From contig CP158635.1 in the NCBI GenBank assembly GCA_050273025.1, forward strand, positions 14,880,001-14,944,000: a stretch of 64,000 nt of DNA. The letters run 5' to 3'. The stretch comes from Cenococcum geophilum (taxonomy: Eukaryota). Below are positions 4,962 to 64,000 of the stretch, piece by piece. The notes under the pieces were generated by a model, which worked only from the letters and a program-made list of their open reading frames with translations, was not told where the DNA came from and made no database searches. Every line of letters starts with the position of its first letter. The stretch's first letter is position 1. The position numbers and the translations under genes are program-made.

Positions 4962-6203
4962 TCAATCATACCAAATAGCATTCATACCAAACCCCGGCTC
5001 CGGAATATCCAATCTCGCAACCCTGCACAGAAACTCCTCATGCCATCTATAAATCTCAATCCCGCCCTTCTCATCGTCCGTGAGTGCCAGCCACTTGTCG
5101 CTCCACGGGAAAGGGCTGACTGCATTCGAATGGCCACCGCTAGTAGGCGTCGGGTTTAAGCAAATCTGGCGCTCGATGCTGCCAACGGGCGAGAGCTTGA
5201 AGGCAGCAATGTAGCCGGTTAGGGAGGATGAGTTGGCGCGCGATGTCGCGAAGAGGTAATTGCCGCTATGGGAGAGGAAGACAACGTCGGAGCGGTACAT
5301 TTTAGTGTTAGTGATGCCTGTGGATCTGTCAGTTTCTGCGGAATCGGAGAGGTTGTGGGAGACCATACCGGGAGGAATGAGAGGGTATGTGATATGCGTG
5401 AATACGGGCATGTGAGTCTGTTCATCTATCACGTAGACTGCAAGCCTGTTACCGGCTTCCATCAACGCGTACAGATACTTTCCCGCAGGATGCAATTCCA
5501 CCCATCGAGGGTGATCTCCAGGAGAGGGAGCATCAATGCTATCAATAAGCGTTAGATAACCTGTCTCACTGTCCTTTTTGTGCATCCATATCTTGTTCTC
5601 CCACATATCCGCCGAATAGAGGTATGTTTCTGTAGGGTCGAAAACCATGCCGTGTATAGCAGACCCCTCGCTATACTCGTAGTTTTGGATATTTGACTCC
5701 AGCCCACCATCCTGGTTAACCGAGAAGACATTGCCGTAGCCTGCGTATTTGTAGAATGGATTTCCGTATACGCTGTATGGTGGTTTATTTGCGGCTAGGA
5801 CGAAAATTGCTCGCGTGTCCGAGTCTGGGCTTGACGCCTGTACTGGGAAAATATGAGATTAGGCGTAGATTGGGCTGGGTAAGGATGGTACATACAATGG
5901 CCTCCCATAGGATGTGAAGCATGGTGTATTATCTCCGTTGGGCCTTTAACAGTGTAGCTGGACCACTTTTTCATCGAAGCTCCGTAGATATTTTTTCTCG
6001 CGTGCTGCACATCTGTTTAGTCCAATGCTGCTGGACAGATGGAAGAAGTAGACGCTCACATCAAAAGTCATCCATGAGATAGGTTCATCATGAGGAATGC
6101 TAGTTTTCTTAAGCAATTTTAGGGTTAATGCTTCATCGTCAAATTCTATAGTATAGATGTTTCCAGGTTGTGTCCAGGTTCCCACCATCAGACGATGAAG
6201 CAT
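4962..6203 (-). CDS. cmcA: 3-carboxy-cis,cis-muconate cyclase (lactonizing enzyme, beta-propeller), multi-exon
   Basis: MLHRLMVGTWT, DEPISWMTFD, IHGMVFDPTETYLYSAD, PGDHPRWV, PTPTSGGHSNAVSP, EPGFGMNAIWYD closely match Neurospora CMLE as I recall it. Confidence 0.93.
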
Positions 6204-6893
6204 GTTTACGGATAGGATGAGACGGGCAGTTAGAACAAAGGCACGAGTACAAGAAAAATCATACAAGCACAGGGTCTGTGAAACAGATTCAATTCTCAAT
6301 AGCTTGACATAGTCGGAGCATAATCCACGCGTGGAACACGCGTGCGATAAACCAATAATTCATTTCTGAGTAAACACCGCTGGTGTGAGACGTGCATTAG
6401 AGAGTGCGGGGGAGGGAACGGCAAAGGAAGCGGCAAAGCATTCATGGTTATTGCGGAAGTAATCAGTTCTCTGATTGGCGAATGCCGAAGCTCTAACCCA
6501 GCCTCTTACAAGGGGTAACACGTACGGGACGGACCCCTCCTGCTAGTATGTTTTTAAAATACGCGAGCCACCTGCAAAATACACGGGTTGTGTTATTCTG
6601 CAAGCGTACTAGCAGGGAGGGCGTCCGTCCGTACCCTGGGTGCGAGTCTCGGCATTTTTTGGAGGGGAGAAAGGCCAAAAACAGAAAGCCGATGGATCTG
6701 CCGCTAGAGTGATCTGACATCAGTCGGTCAACGGGACGTTGAGGTCTTAGTACTTCCCCCGTATATATCTTTTACAATTGGTAGAATTTTCATTGAACGC
6801 TCAGACAATCATATTCCCCTTTCCAATATCATCCTTTACCACCTCCCATCTATCTTCTCCCAAAGAAATACTTTCAAAGCTCCTCCATTCGCA

Positions 6894-7976
6894 ATGGCTC
6901 AGCACAGATTTGACCCGGATTTCACCCAAAATGTCATCGACGCCATTGGACCGAAATGCGAGCCTCGAACGAGGGAGGTTATGTCCGCATTCATTAAGCA
7001 CCTTCACGACTTCGCTCGAGAGGTCGAGCTCACCGTAGACGAGTGGATGATGGGTGTGAATTTTGTGAATACCATCGGACAGATCAGTGATTCCAAAAGA
7101 AACGAAGGACAGCGAATATCAGATGTCCTCGGACTTGAATCGTGCGTACACCCTCCTAGTTTCCCGTTTCTGAATTTTTTTGATGCCTCCATAGGCTAGT
7201 CGACGAAATCGCACATACGCACATCAGCGAGTCCGGCGAGAAACCTACCTCATCTTCGATATTGGGCCCATTCTGGAGTCCAAACGCTCCCTTCCGCGAG
7301 AATGGCTCCACCATAATCCAGAGCCCGCATCAAGGCGAGGTAGCACTCATGTACGGAGTCATTAGAGACCTAGACACCAAGAAGCCCATTCCCGGAGCCG
7401 TTCTTGACATTTGGCAAGCTTCCTCCAACGGGAAATATGACTTCCAAGACCCGGAGAACCAGGTTGACAACAACCTGCGTGGCAAATTCAGGACTAACGA
7501 AAAGGGCGAATACCACTTCTACTGTTTGCGGCCAACCGCATACTCACTTCCTACCGATGGTAAGATAATGATGTTAATTGAACGTTACTCCAGAAATACT
7601 AACATGTTGGCTCTTCAAAGGCTCGGCTGGCACTCTCTTCAAAATTCTTGACCGGCACCCAATGCGACCCGCTCACATTCACTTGATGGTATACATATCT
7701 CCAGTGAGTTATGGAATCAACGTTTGCTGACAAGGCTCGCTCCTCTAGATTACCGCCGAAGGTTATAAGCCAGTGACTACTCAAATTTATCCCAAGGACG
7801 ACTCATACTTGTCAACCGACACAGTCTTCGCTGTGAAGGACGACCTCGTCGTAGATTTTAAGCCGCGGGAGGGCGATCCAAAGGCCAAGCTGGATCTCGA
7901 GTACAACGTCGTTCTTGCACCAAGGGAGCCGCAACGAAAGAATGCACCACAAGCGCAAGGAGTGTCCCGCCTATAA
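6894..7976 (+). CDS. prcA: Intradiol ring-cleavage dioxygenase, fungal protocatechuate 3,4-dioxygenase (PrcA)-like; ends in SRL
   Basis: [81 protein letters not shown]; three introns; lies within the cluster. Confidence 0.85.
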
Positions 7977-12517: not shown

Positions 12518-15500
12518 CTACGCGGCAGGAGGCAACAAACTCCCATCATAAATTCCCTCATCAGGCGTAACCGTGTACGTTGGTCTCTCCTCTGGTTTCA
12601 GGGATTCAGGGTCGATATAGCGACATGTGAGCGCAAAACGCAGTTTGCCGGATGGATCAACAGCATGCTATTAGTCGTTAGCTAAGCATCCCCTGCAGTA
12701 TATTACCCTATCCGAATACGAAGTATATAAATCGGCTTACTTCATAGAACTCTTGTATACCCACACCATGCATAATAACAATGTCGCCATGTCCCAGAGT
12801 CATCGTAATTGCGTCTGGTGCCTTTCCTGACTTTTTCACCAAGCCCAGCTGTTGCGGAAGATCTTTGATCTTTTTCTTGTATGCATCGCGGTTGGTCATT
12901 TTGAGTGATTGGATACTATCGTAAGCGGCTTTGCGTGCATCATAATGTCTGCTGCCAGGTAGTGGGGTAGCCTCTGTGTAGTTCCCGGTCTTCGAAATGC
13001 CATGATAGTGCTTGGCTTTCAAGCGGAGTTTCATGGTAGCCGGAGCGCCTAGAGAGAGCGTAGCAATTGTAGGGCCAAGACCGAATTCGCCATCGTCGTG
13101 GTAATCAATAGCCTGTTTTTCAAAATATCCAAGGGCCAGAACCTCGTTGAACTCCTTGTGGTCTTCTTTTGTAATATGTCGAGCTGCCCAGTTGAGGCGT
13201 GAGCGAGTACTCTTAATCGCGTCCGCCGCGCCATCAAAGCTTCTGCTAGAAGTTGCCGCAATGAACTTATACGGCATACCGTAATTCACTAGGAAATGCT
13301 GTGTCAACATCTGCCCTTTTAGCATTGCTGTTTGCAAAGGTCTTCTCCGCAGTCCGATATCCGTCCCTTGCAACTCCACAAACATGTCGTCTGGGCCGCC
13401 AGCTTCCTCATTCACAGTCCTATTTGCGATAAGATGAGCAACGAAACCATCTATACCTGGAATCTCAAAATAGTTGATCCGGTAATTGTGAGCAAAGTCT
13501 AGCCTCATTTTGATCAAAGGTAAACACTTGTCCCTGGAAAATGCATAATTCGAGGATAACGGATAATAAGGGTCATGGAGTAAGTTCGGTGTGATAAGAG
13601 TGTGAGTAAGGCTGTACTTGAACCCGCAATTGGCATTGCCACATTCCCAACCTATCCAGGACTCTCTTGAATTGCAACGCCCACATCGAGGACAAACAAA
13701 TCCTTTCCAAGCAGCGTAAGAAACATCTTGGCCGATGGTGGGCATTGAATTAATTTTCATTAACTCCGGACGAAGTTCATAGGGCTCACTGGAATGCGGC
13801 CATTGGGTATGTTGCTTCATGAACCTCGGATCGTATAGCAGACATGCTTCCTGTGGCTCAGAGCCATTCTCAAGCTTCCAGAAAAGCAAGCAATCGGGTT
13901 GCAAACACATCCATCCCTGAATATATACCTGTAAGCTCTCTTTACTGCAGCCACAGCACTGCTTACTGATTGCTGGAGAAAGGTCTCCAAGGCCCACTGG
14001 TTCGTACATCTGTTGAGGAGCCCACCAGCAACCATCATATGGCCTCAACTTCTCAAACCGGTATCGGATAATTTTCTTGTCCTGTGACTTCTCGAACCAG
14101 ACATGTGTCGGTTTGAACCAATCCAGAACACAGTACGGGTGCGGGGGCCGAGATGGCGATGTTGGGTTGTTTTCTCCTACAATCATTACGACTGGATTGA
14201 AATGGAAAATGCTATTTCGGACGCTGGAAACCTGGCTCCCTTCTGTCTGGTCTTTTTCCATTACCATATCGCCAGTGGCTTTGTCCTTAGACAACCCACC
14301 ACCAGCACGAGATATGATAATATTCGCGTCCATATAGTCTCGCTCGTGGCTTTCTTTGTCGTACATGAACCCGCGAGCGAAACCGCCGGTGCAGTACCCG
14401 CCTCCTTGGTATGATCGGAAATAGGGAACCGTTTCACATAGCGCTTGACGGCCATCGGCCCAAACGGATGGCTGACCTGAAGGCGCGGGCTTTGGGAGAA
14501 GTGCTGCCGCAGTGGTGAGCTGCTCGGCGAGGTCGGTGAGCCGTCTCTCATCGTCACTGATCGCGGCATTATGCAAGTATACAGCATTATATTCTACCGT
14601 CTTCGGAAGGGCTTGGTGTGCCGGCCATCTCTGTGACACCAGAGTGCTGGTAGAAGTATCATCGACGACGCGAATATCAGGGGGATTTGGGAATGATGTT
14701 TCGACGACTTCCATTTGAGGGTGTTCCCTTAGCTGGTCCGGTGCAATTTCTCCGGTACCCGTTTGCGACGGGTATAATGGCAAGGTGGTACTACGAAGAC
14801 GTTCTTGACTAGGTAGCGGCGTATGGCCCGTACCATTGCCTGGCTTATTATTCTGGCCCGTGGGGCCGAGAGAGATAGAGCCATCTTCAGGCCGGGAATG
14901 AACGTGTGTTTGGTCATCAGTAGAGCTCGCCAAAGGAGCGAATCTCGTTGTGCAAGTGGTACCACACTCTTGTTGCGGCTGTTTCGCCTCCACGGTATTC
15001 AGTGAATCAGGCTCAGCAAATATAGTATTAACTAACTGTGGTGCGCTCTTTCGGCGTGTTGACTTTTGGCCAGAACATCCCGGGCTCTTTGCAGGGGAAC
15101 GAGAGGTGATTTTGCGGCGTGATCCAGTAACCGCCGCAGTCTTTGTTCGTGATACAGCAATCAGCCCAAGTGACTTATTGGCAAGTACCTCTGCTGTCGG
15201 CTTCCTCGCACGACCACCTAAAGGAGTAGGACTGGAGATTCCGACTCCCTGTGTACTAGGTTTTGCGGATTTCTGAGCTGATGTGGGAGGTATCAAGAAT
15301 TTGGCCGTATTTTTTGCCTTCCTATGTGGCTTGTGTTCTCCATCTCTTGCATCTGTATCAGTCTTCAGACGCTTCTCAAGGCGTGCCTCAGGCCAATCAC
15401 TAATGTCGGATGCGGGAGAGCTCAATGGGGAATCTGGTGCGTCCAAGGAATTTCTCGGTGAGTTAAAGACACTCGATAGTTGCGTAGGCAGGGTGTCTGA

Positions 15501-15674
15501 TGCGACTCTCTTCTTTTTTATGTCTGGGGTGGTAGGGCGTAGTATTGTCGAGAGTTGGCCATCGGTTGTTGATCTAGTACGGCCAGAGCCAACTACAGAT
15601 GTCGGTGTGATAATTTGGGTTGGTAGACCGCTGTAATCAAGCGAGCGACGTATTGCTATGCGCATGGAGGACAT
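12518..15674 (-). CDS. Large protein: disordered N-terminus + SRA/SAD-like domain + Cys-rich zinc-binding region + AlkB-type 2OG-Fe(II) dioxygenase
   Basis: Long ORF plus a last exon after intron 12668-12740 reading HAVDPSGKLRFALTCRYI; HDD...H...R..R AlkB signature (YHDDGEFGLGPTIATLSLG, GDIVIMHG); CCGC..WMCLQPDC and CPRCGRC..WECGNANC; start codon uncertain. Confidence 0.8.
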
Positions 15675-16962
15675 GACACGTAACAGATGAACACAATTAT
15701 CCCTCAATCTGGACGTCAGGAGGGATGTCCGTTGAGGAAATCTGAGACTTAGATGACCCTGCTGCTACAAGTGAGAGCAATGCAGATAGCGAGTCGGAGA
15801 ACGAGAGACAAAGGCACATGAAATTTCTCAGAGCAAAAGCGATGTGGTGAGATGTTGGGGGCATGAATTGACCACACATATGAATCAATTCTACTGGAGG
15901 TCAGATAAGCTAAAGCGCCCGGTATGGTGTCATGTGAAACGAATTCGGGAAGAAGTGAGTGATGCGTGTGATAATGCTGTCTAGTAGAAGTCTGGTGATG
16001 TATTATATAGACTTTCTTGACTCCGATACAATGGTTACCTTGGAGTGAGACGATTAATAGCCGGCAAAGTAAATCGGTAATGGGGATGGGATAATAAACT
16101 ACTTCTCGCAGAACTATCATTTCTATTAATGCTAATGCTAGTCATCGCAAAAGCGCTTCGTCCGGATATTGAGACGCTCCTTTAGGTGAATGAGCCCAAG
16201 TGAAGTGCGAGGTTGGGCCGGTTCCTCGGTCATTATAAAGGCTCCGAATCATATAAGTTTCGCTCCGAATACAACTGGGTACTATTGGCTATGCTCACTT
16301 AAATATTTCTTCTTTATAAGCAATGAAATTTCATAGCTGAAAGAGATAACCTGAGGGACTTATATAGTGTATTAATACTGGAGAGCTTTCTATTAAGTGA
16401 TCTATACACTGGCAAAATAACAATTGGGCATCCCGATTGGTTCTATTGGGCTGGACCTTATCGATAACTGTAGGACGAATTGTACCGTTCAACGAGCGAG
16501 GACCTTGAAGTAAGCGCGAGCTAGTTCTTGAAAACCTACGCAACTCGTTTTACATCATGGACAAATATCTGGAGGTTATGCCCTTGTTAGTCCCTGTAAT
16601 GTGACTGCGTCGTTCCTACATCTTTTGAGCGATCTTGTGATCCTCCTAAACTCCGAGAGTTGCAGGATGGGCCCTATACGATGGTTGAGGGATATTTGCA
16701 GGTTTGGAGCCAGATACGTAAGGGAGTCTGATTTCATGGTGGCGGTGAGGGGTTTACTATTCTGAAACTTGGCCGCAATCGTTAAAAATAATGAAAATCA
16801 CGACGCCGATTTCTCTATAACTTCACTGTCCATTTCTGCGTACTTGAGAGTTCTCAATTCTATTCCCAACTTTCAACGGCTTCTTATTTGAGATAAGCCA
16901 CGGGAAGCTGCAAAATTCCGAATCCGTACACATGTCTCGGGTACAACGCCATAATCGACCTG

Positions 16963-31700: not shown

Positions 31701-32641
31701 GTAGCTACTATAGTTAAGCTAAGATAGTAGAATTACTATAATATAAATACTATTAGCTAAAGCTTAAGTAGGAAGTAAAGGAGTATATTAGCTACTATAA
31801 GAAGTATTAAGTATATAAAATCCAAAGGTATAAGCTATAGGGTTTACTTAAATTAGTTCCCCCTACTAGTAAGCTATAGCAATATTACGCCATAGACTTT
31901 ATTATAGATCTCCCGCTATCTAAGGATAAGTAAGGATAAATATACAATTCGGTCCTTGTATTTATTAATAGGGTTTTAAAATATATCTAATACCTTCCCG
32001 TTAATAAGATAACTAATATATAAGCGCTTATAAACCTAATTAAAGAGAAATGCTTTCTTAAAGTAGATTAGCTATACTCTATTATTACTAATAGGGGTAG
32101 CATCTTTATAAGCTAATACTAGTTAGATCTATACTTTTATTTAAAGATAAACTACTATTATAGTACGGCTTTCTACCTATAGATAGATAGGTAAATAAAG
32201 CGCTAGAACTAGGAACTAGAGTCTTATCTATAAATATATTTAAACTACTAGCAAGATAACTAGTACGAACTACTTCTATACGCGGAATACGCTTATAACT
32301 TAAAGTAGTATTCGTTATATTAGTATATACTAATCTAGATTACCTATAGTATCCAACTATTAGGGTTTAATAGTATTAGGGTTTTTTAGATAATGCGAAT
32401 AAGCGAGTATAAAATATTCTTTATCTAATAGAAAATGCATAAAATATCGCAATCGATAAGGATAAAAGTGCCCTATGCGGAGCTTTTCTACCCTAACTAG
32501 GTAGAATAGGACTTAATTCTAGTAGAATTCGGCAGAATTTAGTAGACTTAGCAGAATTTAGCAGATATTGCAGGTATTACAGATATTACAGATATTGCGG
32601 ATATTACGGTACCTTTCCCCCTTAACTATATAATAGCTAAA

Positions 32642-32725
32642 GGTCCTTAAAATCAGACTCTACACCTATATGTAGTAAGGCCTACAAACCTACTAGTCTT
32701 TAGACTTAGCAGAGCTAACGTAGAG
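32642..32725 (+). ncRNA. Predicted HDV-like self-cleaving ribozyme (RIP-damaged copy)
   Basis: P1 GGTCCTT/AAGGCCT, P2 CTCTAC/GTAGAG, P3 ACC/AGT, L3 TATATGT, P4 hairpin, J4/2 CTAA. Confidence 0.7.
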
Positions 32726-33647
32726 ACGTCGCATAGTTGTGGGTAGGAGGGTGGTGGTAGTTAAAATGTTGTGGGGGGTAGTGAAAAGTTTTTACATAGG
32801 ATGGTGAGATTTCGAAAACCACTACTAATGGTACCCCCTTTATAGTAGATAACTGCTATACTCCTATTTAACCCTATATAATCCTTATAGATATAAGATA
32901 AAATCTAAACGTCCCCTAACCCCTAATAGAAAGTATTAATAACCTCTTATATTAACGAATAAATAAATATAAATAAACAAACGAGCAAATATATGGCCCC
33001 TCCTAACCCTTAAGGCGATCGCCCGCGGAGTATACGGTTACTTACTATTAACTACTAAATACTACCTAGCAGCCTAGATAATACCGTACGGTTTTCCTAT
33101 CTCCTTTTAAGGAGTGGTAACCCTTAGTAAGGGCCTAGCAATTAGGGCCTAGATATAAAAGATACCTAGGCATATATACACACGTCCCACTCGCCTTTTA
33201 GTATAGTAGTAGTTTATAAATAAATCCCCCTTATACCTTTAATAGGCATAGCGTATATAGTAATAGTTAATAGGAGATAGTATATAGGGGACGGTTAAAA
33301 TATAGGAAACAATAATAAGACACAGCGATTAATCGGCAAGGCCTAGCTAGGACGTAGTGAACCCTAGCTTAGGATAAGCTATAGAGAAGGAAGTAGTGGT
33401 TCCTAAGGAGTTTAAGACATCTAAGGAGGATAGGACGTAGCTATAGGCCTATAGGGCCGCTGCTATGGACGGACATGGTAAATTGGGGTTTTTTTATCCT
33501 ACTAAGATAGCTTATAGGGTTTTTCCTCCCCTAACCTAACTGTAGGGGTTTTCTTCCTGTAAATACATAAGTTTTCCCCCTACGATGGAGTAGTCTGCGT
33601 AGGCTAGTAGGATCCGTATTAGACGTTAATTAAAGAATTATTATTAT
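32642..33647 (+). mobile_element. ~1.0-kb non-autonomous retroposon (SINE-like), copy 1
   Basis: 15-bp TSD TATATAATAGCTAAA (32627-32641, 33648-33662); (TTA)n tail; homologous end to end with 61848-62856. Confidence 0.9.
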
Positions 33648-34672
33648 TATATAATAGCTAAATACTTAGAGAAAATCCACCTATTTTTCTTATAGTTCTT
33701 CTCTAATACTAATTCTTTAAAATACTCTATTTTCTTAAGAGTTTAGGATCTATCTATATTCTCTCCTATAATACTATATAACGTCCTTCTAAAAAGACTC
33801 TTTCTAGCTTATTACTTATTACTAGAATTAAGAGAATTTTAATTACTATAAGCAAGAGCCATAGCTAGCGCTTTTATTACTATTCTTAAGACTACTACTA
33901 AAGTATAGTTGTTAAAATCTTATATAGCGTCTTAGAGATAAAGTCCTTATACTTATCTTAACTTTTTGGTTAAAATATTATACTATTAAGATCCTTAGTA
34001 ATCTTATTAAACTTATTAAGGTCTTAAGCTAGAGCTAGCCTTTTATATAACGATATACTTCTAGGTATAAAACTCCTATTCTAATATCTTTCCTAAAGCT
34101 CTTTAACGCCGTTAAGTATAGGCTTATACTACTCCTTCTTCTAAACCTACTTAATATATTTTATATAACGGGCTAGATAAAGAATAAGTATAGCGGCGTA
34201 AAGGGGCAAGTTATCTATTTTATGGTAATATCTATTAAGGGTATTCTAAGTATTTTTAATATGTTTAAAGAACTCCTTATTAGATATATACTCTTCTATT
34301 ATATAATATTAGCTAAATTAAGAAATAGAAAGGGGAGATAAACTAACCTAGGATTTATTAAGGTGCTTAATTATAATATCTATTATAAAAAGTATATTCT
34401 TAAGCGTTACTTTATATCCCTAATATTTTAGGGTTACCTAGTAGAATATCTAAAGAAAACTTTTTATTATATAAAGCGCCTCCTAGTCCTTTAGACTAAG
34501 ATAGTCCTTTTTAAGTATATTAAGGTTATACTTAGTATACGTATTAATAGTAGACTCTTTCTAAATTACTACGTTAAGTATAAAATACTAGCTATTCTAT
34601 CTTATATAATTATTAAGTAGAATTCTTCTCCCTATAAGACTTTTAAACTCCCTTATATAACTAGCTAAGCTA

Positions 34673-35960: not shown

Positions 35961-36141
35961 TATAACGGCGCTAGGGCATTGCCCCTACGACGTCTATATG
36001 CAGCCTAGTTAGGGGCTTACTTAGAGACTTAGCTCGTGTATATAGACCTTTCCTCAACCTTCTTCTACTCCTTAGCTTAGTATCTTTATAATATAGCATT
36101 CTACAAGCTTCGGTTTAGAGGCATTTATATAAGCCGTAACA
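35961..36141. mobile_element. Solo LTR, 181 bp
   Basis: T(G>A)TAACGG...CCGTAACA termini; 5-bp TSD ATAAT (35956-35960, 36142-36146); interrupts the hAT ORF. Confidence 0.85.
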
Positions 36142-60950: not shown

Positions 60951-61847
60951 CTCTTAGGGATCTATATAGTTTAGCAGTAGTAAGTAGGCTATTAAGGACC
61001 GCTATTAAGCTATAAATAGCGATGGGGGAGATAACAGGGGAGACGATAGGGGAGATAATGGGGGTGGGATAAGACGGCTAATGCCCTCGGGTACTATATC
61101 CGCTATATCTCTTAATCCTCTAGCGGTATTAGTTAATAGAGAGGGTAGTTTATTATTAAAAGCTTAAGAAGACTGGCTCCTGCTAGACAAAATAGAGGGG
61201 TTTCTTTAACGCCTTTTAAATGCGCCTATAGCTAATAGTTAGTTCTAAAAAATCCATTAATTAAAGAGCTAATTAAGGCAATTCTAATATAGGTATTAAT
61301 AGGATAATAGACGTGGCGGTTGCTTACATTAATTTTATTAAAGTTAATAGTTTGCCTTATATAAATAGACCAGCTTAGCTTCTAAAAGCTTGCCAAAGTG
61401 GCTTAAACTAAGAAATAGATGGATTGATCAAATAGGTTAGCTTGCGGATATTTATTGGTTTCTTGGTCTAAGCATGCTAAGTTAAAATTTTCGCGATGCA
61501 CGCGTAAACGCACGTGATAGCAGTCTTCACCACTACGTGCACGGTCCCACTCAATGTACGGTTTTTTCTTACCAAAATTTGCTTAAATATACCTTTTTAT
61601 ACTACCTATAACTTAATAACCTTTTAACAGAATTTTATGAAATTCTTAATATAGCTTATTAAATACTAAAGCTATAATTTTATGTAAAAATATTATAATA
61701 TATTCTAAAATATATATACTTAAAATTAGGTTAAAAAAGTACTTTTTTAGTAAAGCTTAGTATTATTAATAATACTATTAATAAAGCTATTATATAGCTA
61801 GATTTTATATATATTTATATATATTATATAAATAAGTGTTTTTAATA

Positions 61848-62856
61848 GTAGTAATTCTTAATTAACGTCTGATACGGATCCTATCTAGGCCTACGCAGAC
61901 TACTCCGTTATAGGGGGAAAACTTATAATTTATAGGAAGAAAACCCTGCAGTTTAGGGGAGGAAAAACTCTATAAGCCACCTCAGTAGGATAAAAAACCC
62001 CAGTTTGCCATGTCCGTCTATAGCGGCGGCCCTATAGGCCTACGGCTACGTCCTGTCCTCCTTAGATGTTCAAACTCCTTAGGAACCGCTACTTCCTTCT
62101 CTAGCTTATCCTAGCTAGGGTTCACTACGTCCTAGCTAGGCCTTGCCGTTTAATTACTATACACTTGTGGTTGTATTCCATATTTTAACCACCCCCTATA
62201 TACTATCTCTTGTTAACCATTATTATATACACTATGCCTTCCCCCCCCTAAGGCCTATCAAAGGCATAAGGGGGATTTATTTATAAACTACTATTATACT
62301 AAAAGGCGAGCGGAACGTATATACCTAAGTATCTTTTATGCCTAGGCCCTAGTTACTAGGCCCTCGCCAAGGGTTACTACTCCTTAAGAGGAGATAGGAA
62401 AACCGTACGGTATTATCTAAGCTGCTAGGTAGTATTTAATAGTTAATAGTAAGTAACCGTATACTCCGCGGGCGATTGCCCTAGGGGTTAGGAGGGGCCG
62501 TATATTTACTCGTTGCTCATTTATTTACAATCACTCGTTTATTAACGTAAGAGGTCGTTAATACTCTCTACTAGGGGTTAGGGGATGTTATTAAATACCG
62601 CGTATCTATATTAGATCGTATAGGTGCCTTAATAGGAGAATAGTGTTGCTGTTATTCATAAGGGGCACTTAGTAGTAGTTTTCGAGATCTCACCATCCCA
62701 TATGAAAACTTTTCACTACCGCCCATAATACCCACCACTACCACTAGGTCGTATCGCACGCTGTACAACGTCTCTGCATTAGCTCTAAGTCTAAACTTTA
62801 AAGACTTAGGTTCGTAGCCGTCACCACGTACAGGTGCAGAGTCCGTTTTTAACGGC
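61848..62856 (-). mobile_element. ~1.0-kb non-autonomous retroposon (SINE-like), copy 2
   Basis: 15-bp TSD TAAGTGTTTTTAATA (61833-61847, 62857-62871); same start and end as copy 1. Confidence 0.9.
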
Positions 62857-62857
62857 T
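62772..62857 (-). ncRNA. Predicted HDV-like self-cleaving ribozyme (better-preserved copy)
   Basis: P1 (A)GCCGTT/GACGGCT, P2 CTCTGC/GCAGAG, P3 ACC/GGT, L3 TGTACGT, P1.1 GT/AC, P4 CTAAGTCT/AGACTTAG, J4/2 CTAA. Confidence 0.8.
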
Positions 62858-64000
62858 AAGTGTTTTTAATATATATATAGTTTATTAATTATATATTAAA
62901 TAAATTATATTAAATTTTAATATACTTAAAATATATATATTTATATTATAAATAAAGTTTTTACATAATAAATTAAGGATATAAAATACTTTATTATAAG
63001 TAAAATTAAGTATAAAAAATATAATTAAGCTTATTATTATATCTAATATAATAATTGAAATTTTTTAGTATATATAAAAAGTAAGCTTCTTTATTTCAAG
63101 TTATAACCAATAATATTTTTCAACTTTTATTTTATAAATACTTTTATTTGTTATAGAATAAGCTATATTAAAAAAATTATATTAATTGCTATTATAGTAA
63201 TTAAGTTATAAGCATTTAAATATAATTTTTTTAAAATGATTTTTAGAACTATATATAAGCTAATTATATATATAAGCTAGTTACTAATATATTTAAAAAA
63301 AAAACTTACTTATATAATAAAACTAGATATATATATAATCTAGCTATATAGTAGCTTTATTATTAATATTATTAATATTATCAAGTTTTATTAAAAAAGT
63401 ACTTTTTTAACCTAATTTTAAGTATATATATTTTATAATATATTATAATATTTTTATATAAAATTATAGCTTTAGTATTTAATAAGCTATATTAAAAATT
63501 TTATAAAATTCTATTAAAAGGTTATTAAGTTATAGGTGGTATAAAAAGGTGTATTTAAGCAAATTTTGGTAAGGAAAACCGTGCATTGAGTAGGACCGTG
63601 CACGCAGTGGTGAGGTACTCTATTCTAACTTGATGAGGATGCATCTAACTTAATGAGGATGCATCTAACTTAATGAGGATGCATCTAACTTAATGAGGAA
63701 GCATCTAAACCAAATGAGGTAGGGGGTGTATGCGTATTAATTGGGGGGTGTACGTGTATTGTTTAGGGGGTGTATAAATAGTGGCGACCTATTTTTTAAT
63801 TTAGAGGTATTAATAGAGTTAAGAGCTTCTAATTCTACTTCTAAAGCTATATTTTATATAATAATAAAGAAGAAGAAGGCAAATGAAAATTTATTTAGGG
63901 TATGCTAAGACTTATCGCAATAAGACACAATATATATCCTTTTTTTTTGTCCATTGTATTATACTATATACAATACTGCGCATACAGCCTTAGGCTATAG

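Follow-up and report, generated by a model that had tools for sequence, protein, structure and literature searches.

A high-copy fungal retroposon with a predicted HDV-like ribozyme at its 5′ end

The stretch of DNA analyzed here, called the window throughout, covers 64 kb of the Cenococcum geophilum genome (contig CP158635.1, positions 14,880,001 to 14,944,000) and carries two decayed copies of a ~1-kb repeat. From these and from many further copies in metagenome contigs, we are certain that the repeat is a discrete, non-coding, non-autonomous retroposon of the type that lacks long terminal repeats (non-LTR). It is built from three modules: a predicted hepatitis delta virus (HDV)-like ribozyme of ~86 nt at the 5′ end, a unique body of ~850 nt with conserved blocks, and a 3′ end of ~70 nt followed by a (TAC)n run. 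That the first of these modules has an HDV-like fold is well supported by its anatomy, its position, the pairing found across the family and its likeness to known models. The full explanation that we consider probable is of a high-copy non-autonomous element in which a self-cleaving HDV-like head is joined, through the body, to a 3′ end shared with a long interspersed nuclear element (LINE).

A discrete, non-coding retroposon and its partner LINE

An earlier sequence-only reading of the window had described two diverged copies on opposite strands, and both are in place (Table 1). They are 80.2% identical across ~1040 columns, and no further relatives of the pair were found within the 64-kb window. 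Both lie in its AT-rich right half, which resembles DNA altered by repeat-induced point mutation (RIP) and has a GC content of ~0.30-0.38, compared with ~0.48 in the genic left part; the window copies are RIP-decayed relics. The 15-bp target-site duplication (TSD) that had been claimed for each copy holds for copy 1, while that of copy 2 measures 14 (or 15) bp, the A at 62857 being either a RIP-changed first base of the element (G1) or else the 15th base of the TSD.

Further copies were collected from metagenome contigs by a scan with a degenerate 22-nt motif from the ribozyme core, which in the window matches just the two copies (0 matches are expected by chance). The scan matched at least 124 stretches that represent at least 125 distinct copies, or at least 127 with the window pair included. 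Among the matches listed, none share a 40-nt upstream flank, indicating that the copies are independent insertions. High copy number is also evident in the DNA contigs of two organisms, which contain 5428 and 3283 pieces at least 80% alike to copy 2; 27 and 17 of these contigs, respectively, turn into unlike sequence just past 62856 and thus mark a shared 5′ boundary. The aligned pieces differ from copy 2 mostly by a G or C where copy 2 has an A or T, the pattern that RIP in the window copy would produce.

The unit has constant ends. Full length, judged by a ~1-kb match to a reference copy, is reached by 54 of the 56 copies with at least 1200 nt of downstream sequence; one of the two exceptions ends after ~190 nt and the other is split by an insertion. 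Element lengths range from 988 to 1031 nt. Of the copies that extend 1100 nt or more downstream, 57 in all, 43 have an exact TSD of at least 10 bp directly before G1. These TSDs measure 10 to 18 bp, most often 14-15 bp (14 bp in 13 copies, 15 bp in 15 copies), and 35 of the 43 begin with TA. Among 124 copies the element opens with G in 115, with A in 8 and with T in 1; the five flanking columns, by contrast, are mixed. Since the base that follows the 3′ TSD is G in just 4 of the 43 copies, the initial G1 belongs to the element. The common 5′ start proposed for the two window copies thus extends to the family. A truncated copy (L039) considered as a second family with the same head was rejected, as it is a copy of this element cut off after ~185 nt.

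In agreement with the sequence-only reading, no protein-coding capacity was recognized: the longest stop-free frames in two little-mutated copies (99 and 109 aa) lie on opposite strands and are not common to the copies, and there is no long conserved open reading frame (ORF). A classical short interspersed nuclear element (SINE) head, derived from tRNA, 7SL or 5S RNA with an RNA polymerase III (Pol III) promoter, was not found either. ARAGORN returned 0 tRNA genes in a little-mutated copy, and the sole Rfam match in a whole 1-kb copy was an HDV ribozyme model, RF02682. The 3′ part of the element contains a T6 run, and the element ends in a few TAC repeats, (TAC)n, that RIP converts to (TAT)n.

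Several internal blocks of the element (nt 154-183, 353-402, 573-597 and 749-824 of the reference copy, L005:1497-2507) have nearly no transversions or indels in 54 copies, with a fraction of 0.00-0.01 compared with up to 0.15 elsewhere; they may hold a promoter or bind a protein. One mini-copy (L013:303-490) has large internal deletions, such that the ribozyme, cut within P4, runs into nt ~152-186 and then into nt ~857-936.

The partner LINE, ~5.5 kb in length, was traced through five matches confined to the 3′-terminal 60-90 nt of the element. It is present in many RIP-degraded copies in the metagenome loci and has only the last ~65-75 nt in common with the element, at 80-90% identity; positions 61839-61912 of the window align with the 3′ end of the LINE at 81%. 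Two hairpins are alike in the two 3′ ends, with folding z-scores of -1.7 to +0.9 that are not significant relative to shuffled sequences, so the evidence for a common 3′ end is the shared sequence and not the folding energy. Long ORFs did not yield a LINE protein, the 15 ORFs of at least 250 aa in the loci being host genes. Stop-free fragments of the LINE give weak colinear matches to the reverse transcriptase (RT) domain RVT_1, and reading the RIP stops as X turns one frame into a clear match to this domain (54.2 bits, E 2e-14). P0027, an intact 1026-aa protein with an apurinic/apyrimidinic endonuclease (APE)-type endonuclease and an RT, is 70% identical to the RT region of the LINE. The LINE-like 3′ end and tail reported for the window copies, and with them the proposal of a discrete, LINE-dependent retroposon, are therefore borne out by a constant unit, by its TSDs and by ~70 terminal nt and a TSD length common to an endonuclease- and RT-bearing LINE.

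The two elements differ at their 5′ ends. In 6 copies the LINE begins with GGAGCTCTTGC, and no sequence likeness to the ribozyme, descriptor match or Rfam ribozyme match was found at the 5′ ends of these 6 RIP-degraded copies. The ribozyme head is not common to the LINE, and the family shows a SINE design with a head and a tail of separate origin. In three copies examined by eye, LINE TSDs of 13-15 bp lie 6, 7 and 20 extra bases from the shared start, and a script-based search detected no TSD adjoining the LINE start in 4 of 4 copies. Ragged LINE junctions next to an invariant element start are the pattern that would be given by a dedicated device for making 5′ ends.

LINE copies were located at L044:1060-6617 (minus strand), L050:2742-9313 and L076:2372-8864 and in L023, L053, L060 and L074. 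They show a CCHC-like stretch, an APE-like motif, an RT and a (TAT)n/(TAA)n tail, and several of them have the 1-kb element inserted in them (L050 6430-7447; L076 ~6029-7041). Four copies of the element (in L028, L067 and L071 and the second copy in L053) have the LINE-type tail box GTTAAGCAATGAAT in place of the usual GTTAATYAAAGA, which suggests repeated exchange of tails with the LINE.

The HDV-like fold at the 5′ end

The sequence-only reading had placed an HDV-like nested double pseudoknot at the start of both window copies. Its helices are present in the two sequences as written, and the first ~86 nt fit this fold in an alignment of 124 copies with 26 pairs, from which 3 of the 127 copies were excluded because their locus ends inside the region. 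For copy 2 the fold rests on the reading of its sequence, on the family pair counts and on the register of Rfam models on little-mutated copies. The elements follow one another in the order P1-J1/2-P2-P3-L3-P3′-P1′-P1.1-P4-J4/2-P2′ (P, paired; J, joining; L, loop), which is that of a nested double pseudoknot. Pairing is found in 95.5% of 3082 cells and drops to 29-42% once the 3′ partners are shifted 1-3 columns out of register; these figures, like the shuffle controls, are inflated by kinship among the copies. Each helix is paired in at least 86% of cases, and the P1 helices in 95-97%.

The little-mutated consensus has a 7-bp P1 (GGCCGTC with GACGGCT) that is closed by a G1·U wobble at the predicted cut site; among the 124 copies this pair is GU in 115, AU in 8 and something else in 1. 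A 9-nt J1/2 is followed by P2 (CTCTGC/GCAGAG), P3 (ACC/GGT), a 7-nt L3 (TGTACGT) and P1.1 (GT/AC). In P1.1, the first pair is G-C in 83 copies, A-U in 4, G-U in 2 and other in 35 (RIP changing G to A), and the second is U-A in 124 of 124. J4/2 reads (A)GCCAAC, which contains the C-N-A-A motif; its first C and both A residues are at least 90% conserved, and this first C is the predicted catalytic cytosine. The combination of a 3-bp P3 with a 7-nt L3 containing U and G is present in copy 2 and in all metagenome copies (letters fixed by the search pattern). In three bystander copies that lack the pattern, P3 and L3 differ by RIP transitions or appear error-ridden. Copy 1 is degraded in this region, with TATATGT as its L3, a C·A mismatch in P3 and U·C at P1 pair 3.

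P1 pair 5 is GC in 97 copies, CG in 17, GU in 8 and other in 2, and the CG form belongs to subfamily B, which includes copy 1 and has the P1 GGTCCTC with GAGGCCT. The transversion covariation that had been claimed for this pair is thus real and marks a subfamily, but covariation is thinner than was implied and the same subfamily carries a U·C pair. P4 comes in 88 different versions, 14-30 nt long and built on at least five architectures, nearly all of them hairpins closed by CUG/CAG; in subfamily B, P4 has matched CUG and CAG insertions, one in each arm.

Likeness to known ribozymes points the same way. A little-mutated copy scores 14.4 bits with RF02682 and 11.8 bits with RF01787, both far below threshold and both aligned from model position 1 at G1, and a whole 1-kb copy scores 15.7 bits with RF02682 as its sole Rfam match at E up to 5; Rfam models cannot score pseudoknots. 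RF02682, the HDV ribozyme of Faecalibacterium prausnitzii, is the best Rfam match and aligns end to end. In the core CACCU-N-UACGUGGUGA (P3-L3-P3′), 15 of 16 letters agree with its consensus; J1/2 begins in a similar way, and J4/2 shares the form GC-N-AA. The lone difference in the core lies in P1.1 and is compensated, the pair being C-G in RF02682 and G-C in the element. The P2 and P4 sequences are unrelated, and RF02682 represents a bacterial ribozyme that is not part of a retroelement.

A custom, hand-made HDV-like descriptor matched 76 family copies, every one of them starting at G1, against a background of 23 unrelated matches in 1.55 million positions and of 37 and 15 in two shuffles; its chance rate for one named position is ~1-2 per 100,000. 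In the window the strict descriptor gave one unrelated match at 61303, and both retroposon copies failed it because of RIP changes. A loose version gives ~1 chance match per 64 kb.

The fold also agrees with published features of the class. Passages of PMC3774820 describe P3, L3 and P1.1 as conserved and P1 as varying with compensation, note that J1/2 can be long, and report a reverse wobble between a G and a U of L3; a P3 of 3 bp and a P1.1 of 1-2 bp are given in part of PMC3185411. In these respects, as far as the passages go, the element fits.

The P1 5′ strand (element nt 2-17; 62841-62856 in copy 2) has an alternative partner in J1/2 and the first bases of P2, through CCG/CGG in subfamily A and GTCC/GGAC in subfamily B, in a hairpin that RNAalifold chooses. 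This hairpin could act as a folding switch in competition with P1.

Table 1. Coordinates of the retroposon copies, their duplications and their predicted structural parts in the window
Feature	Position	Strand	Remarks
Copy 2 of ~1-kb retroposon	61848-62857	-	1010 nt, RIP-mutated; full-length match to reference copy L005
Copy 2 5′ TSD	62858-62871		TATTAAAAACACTT
Copy 2 3′ TSD	61834-61847		TATTAAAAACACTT
Copy 2 HDV-like ribozyme domain (predicted)	62772-62857	-	
Copy 2 P1	62851-62857 with 62816-62822		
Copy 2 J1/2	62842-62850		
Copy 2 P2	62836-62841 with 62772-62777		
Copy 2 P3	62833-62835 with 62823-62825		
Copy 2 L3	62826-62832		
Copy 2 P1.1	62830-62831 with 62814-62815		
Copy 2 P4	62785-62809		
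Copy 2 J4/2	62778-62784		
Copy 2 3′ module common with partner LINE	61848-61912	-	two hairpins, GACGTTAA box
Copy 2 TAC-repeat tail	61848-61854		
Copy 1 of ~1-kb retroposon	32642-33647	+	1006 nt, subfamily B, heavily RIP-mutated
Copy 1 5′ TSD	32627-32641		15 bp, TATATAATAGCTAAA
Copy 1 3′ TSD	33648-33662		15 bp, TATATAATAGCTAAA
Copy 1 ribozyme domain (predicted)	32642-32725	+	degraded

Proposed mobilization and competing explanations

A stranded RNA run with the same species label contains 10,580 reads on copy 2 at 80% likeness or better, overwhelmingly in sense orientation, and no reads in the flanks of copy 2. Transcription of the sense strand, which is thus observed, would be the first step of mobilization, with upstream read-through or an internal promoter as its possible source. 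The ribozyme would then cut just 5′ of G1, so that each template RNA begins at the same base; this step is suggested by the structure and by the uniform DNA 5′ ends. Finally, the LINE RT would recognize the shared 3′ stem-loops and copy the RNA where TA-rich DNA has been nicked, giving TSDs of 14-15 bp, a role to which the shared tail and the alike TSDs point. Catalysis and the source of transcription are the parts of this scheme that we infer.

The RNA itself has a sharp end, with 318 molecules stopping at 62848 where the adjacent depth is 1199, and in two metatranscriptome contigs the sequencing adapter follows directly after 62847. These ends, at nt 10-11, lie 9-10 nt inside G1 (62857), where cleavage is predicted. 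Because nt 1-9 are present in all DNA copies, the template cannot be an RNA with its start at nt 10. RNA 5′ termini are lost in second-strand cDNA synthesis, and this loss, the sole explanation we offer, may account for the shortfall. The ends at nt 10-11 neither confirm nor exclude cleavage at G1.

The position of the RNA ends is one of several observations that weigh against a self-cleaving head. The window copies have no Rfam ribozyme match at E up to 10, where only chance matches to small nucleolar RNAs appear, and the 14-16 bits reached with RF02682 and the score for RF01787 compare with Rfam thresholds of 44 and 37 bits, respectively, so that the element is formally a member of neither family. 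Compensatory transversions are confined to one pair, and the double changes from GC to AU in P4 and P2 could be the work of RIP on both strands. P1 pair 3 is a U·C mismatch in subfamily B (18 of 124 copies), which counts against strict selection for pairing. The search pattern fixed the letters of the 5′ strand of P2, of P3 and of L3, making their constancy in the metagenome copies uninformative. RNAalifold, which is blind to pseudoknots, offers a nested alternative from L3/P3′ and the 3′ strand of P1; it also returns P2 and the base of P4, and finds no compensatory pairs. Several internal blocks are conserved as strongly as the ribozyme, and conservation is thus not specific to it.

Some of these observations would be accommodated if the 5′ ~86 nt were structured without cutting, serving to promote transcription internally, to give cap-like protection or to bind a protein, with transcription starting precisely at G1 and the likeness to HDV ribozymes reflecting convergence or a dead relic. 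The RNA ends at nt 10-11 and not at nt 1, the sub-threshold Rfam scores and the P1 mismatch in a subfamily that still proliferated are all in keeping with such a role, and a promoter function is made plausible by L1Tc, whose 77 nt act as promoter and ribozyme according to the relevant part of PMC3185411. We nevertheless consider this explanation unlikely. It does not account for the joint occurrence, exactly at nt 1, of a G1·U pair, a 7-bp P1, a 3-bp P3, a 7-nt L3 with its U and G, a 2-bp P1.1 and C-N-A-A in J4/2, nor for a P1.1 flip that is compensated relative to the model of a validated ribozyme, nor for a P4 that varies in length while its hairpin is kept, and a start at nt 10-11 could not template nt 1-9 of every DNA copy.

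A double pseudoknot fitted by chance onto a conserved repeat, with the pairing percentages reflecting no more than likeness among copies, is in our view very improbable. The copies are indeed related, which inflates the pairing figures and shuffle controls, and the loose descriptor finds a match by chance about once in every stretch as long as the window. The rate at one named position, however, is the ~1-2 in 100,000 given above, two independent Rfam HDV models fall into register from G1, and the compensatory P1 transversion is accompanied by paired insertions in P4. That the 1-kb unit is merely the 3′ part of a longer LINE, as its untranslated region or as a 5′-truncated copy, was suggested by the last ~70 nt shared with the 5.5-kb LINE and can be dismissed almost completely (as a LINE 3′ untranslated region it was rejected), given that length (~1 kb) and start are uniform in 54 of 56 copies, that TSDs bound exactly this unit in 43 of 57, that the LINE match is limited to those ~70 nt and that the 5′ end of the LINE is a different one of its own.

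Known relatives, implications and other window features

In animals and trypanosomes, non-LTR retroelements that begin with an HDV-like ribozyme are established. Classical SINEs, including those of fungi derived from tRNA, are short and non-coding and combine a LINE-derived 3′ end with a simple-repeat tail; the element resembles them in 3′ end and tail but differs in its length of ~1 kb and in that no tRNA, 5S or 7SL head was found. A close parallel in design may be drawn with NARTc and L1Tc of Trypanosoma cruzi, which, in the parts of PMC3185411 and PMC3383444 that concern them, are like the element in that a non-coding, non-autonomous non-LTR retroelement with an HDV-like fold in its first ~77-86 nt is mobilized by a LINE, and whose ribozyme, L1TcRz, is stated to cut at +1. 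NARTc shares the ribozyme and 5′ end with L1Tc, whereas the fungal element shares only its 3′ ~70 nt with the partner LINE; P1.1 is described as 1 or 2 bp in L1Tc and is 2 bp in the element, the host of which is a fungus.

Insect R2 and SIDE elements have a 5′ HDV-like ribozyme that releases a precise 5′ end from a co-transcript, and the R2 derivatives (SIDE) keep both the ribozyme and the 3′ RT-binding end, as set out in portions of PMC3774820 and PMC3414825. Unlike these derivatives, the element did not arise from its LINE by deletion. R2 inserts site-specifically into 28S rDNA by means of a restriction-like endonuclease, whereas the element has dispersed, TA-rich sites, TSDs of 14-15 bp and an APE-type partner. 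Animal SINE-like elements with ribozymes (the Schistosoma hammerhead SINEs, retrozymes and metazoan HDV-like SINEs) are likewise non-autonomous and carry a small self-cleaving ribozyme; as presented in sections of PMC6765202, PMC7229834 and PMC8501958, they are found in metazoans or plants, mostly have hammerhead or twister ribozymes and in some cases pass through circular RNA stages, whereas the element is fungal, linear and TSD-flanked and has an HDV-like head.

No fungal retroelement with an HDV-like ribozyme was found in full-text literature searches, which did not cover Repbase, Dfam or Ruminski et al. 2011, and within that scope the earlier statement that a described fungal family of this design was not known agrees with the literature. 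The relevant part of a 2019 review places HDV-like-ribozyme SINEs and LINEs in metazoans (PMC6765202). In a 2026 Cenococcum genome paper, the parts consulted report abundant Tad1 LINEs and 17.8% unclassified transposable elements, and a term search of the main text returned neither "ribozyme" nor "non-autonomous"; the family described here may account for part of the unclassified fraction in a Cenococcum-type genome. We put forward, as a proposal whose chances we hold to be even, that the element is a modular "ribozyme-headed SINE" and the first fungal HDV-like ribozyme family, with an active head acquired independently of the LINE in replacement of a Pol III head.

If this is true, the head would let the element use any passing transcription, which could help to explain how its copies came to number in the hundreds to thousands in an ectomycorrhizal ascomycete that is very rich in repeats. 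Confirmation would extend the making of 5′ ends by HDV-like ribozymes to a third eukaryotic kingdom, and it would supply structure-function studies with more than 100 natural variants of a single ribozyme, in which P4 takes many forms and P1 takes two. A core that is nearly letter-for-letter that of a bacterial HDV-like ribozyme also raises the question of deep conservation versus convergence.

Elsewhere in the window, the minus strand at 12708-15764 carries an open frame of 1018 aa with an Fe2OG/AlkB-type dioxygenase domain (PF13532) and 87% identity to a Glonium stellatum protein; a 100% match to it is found in run assemblies only. This gene assigns the window to a Dothideomycete of Gloniaceae type, for which Cenococcum is a reasonable candidate. 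Positions 36004-36133 match a different short repeat (78% to L050 ~2362-2491) that occurs as close inverted pairs in several loci (for example L016 8399-8574 and 8636-8822) and is possibly a foldback element or one resembling a miniature inverted-repeat transposable element.

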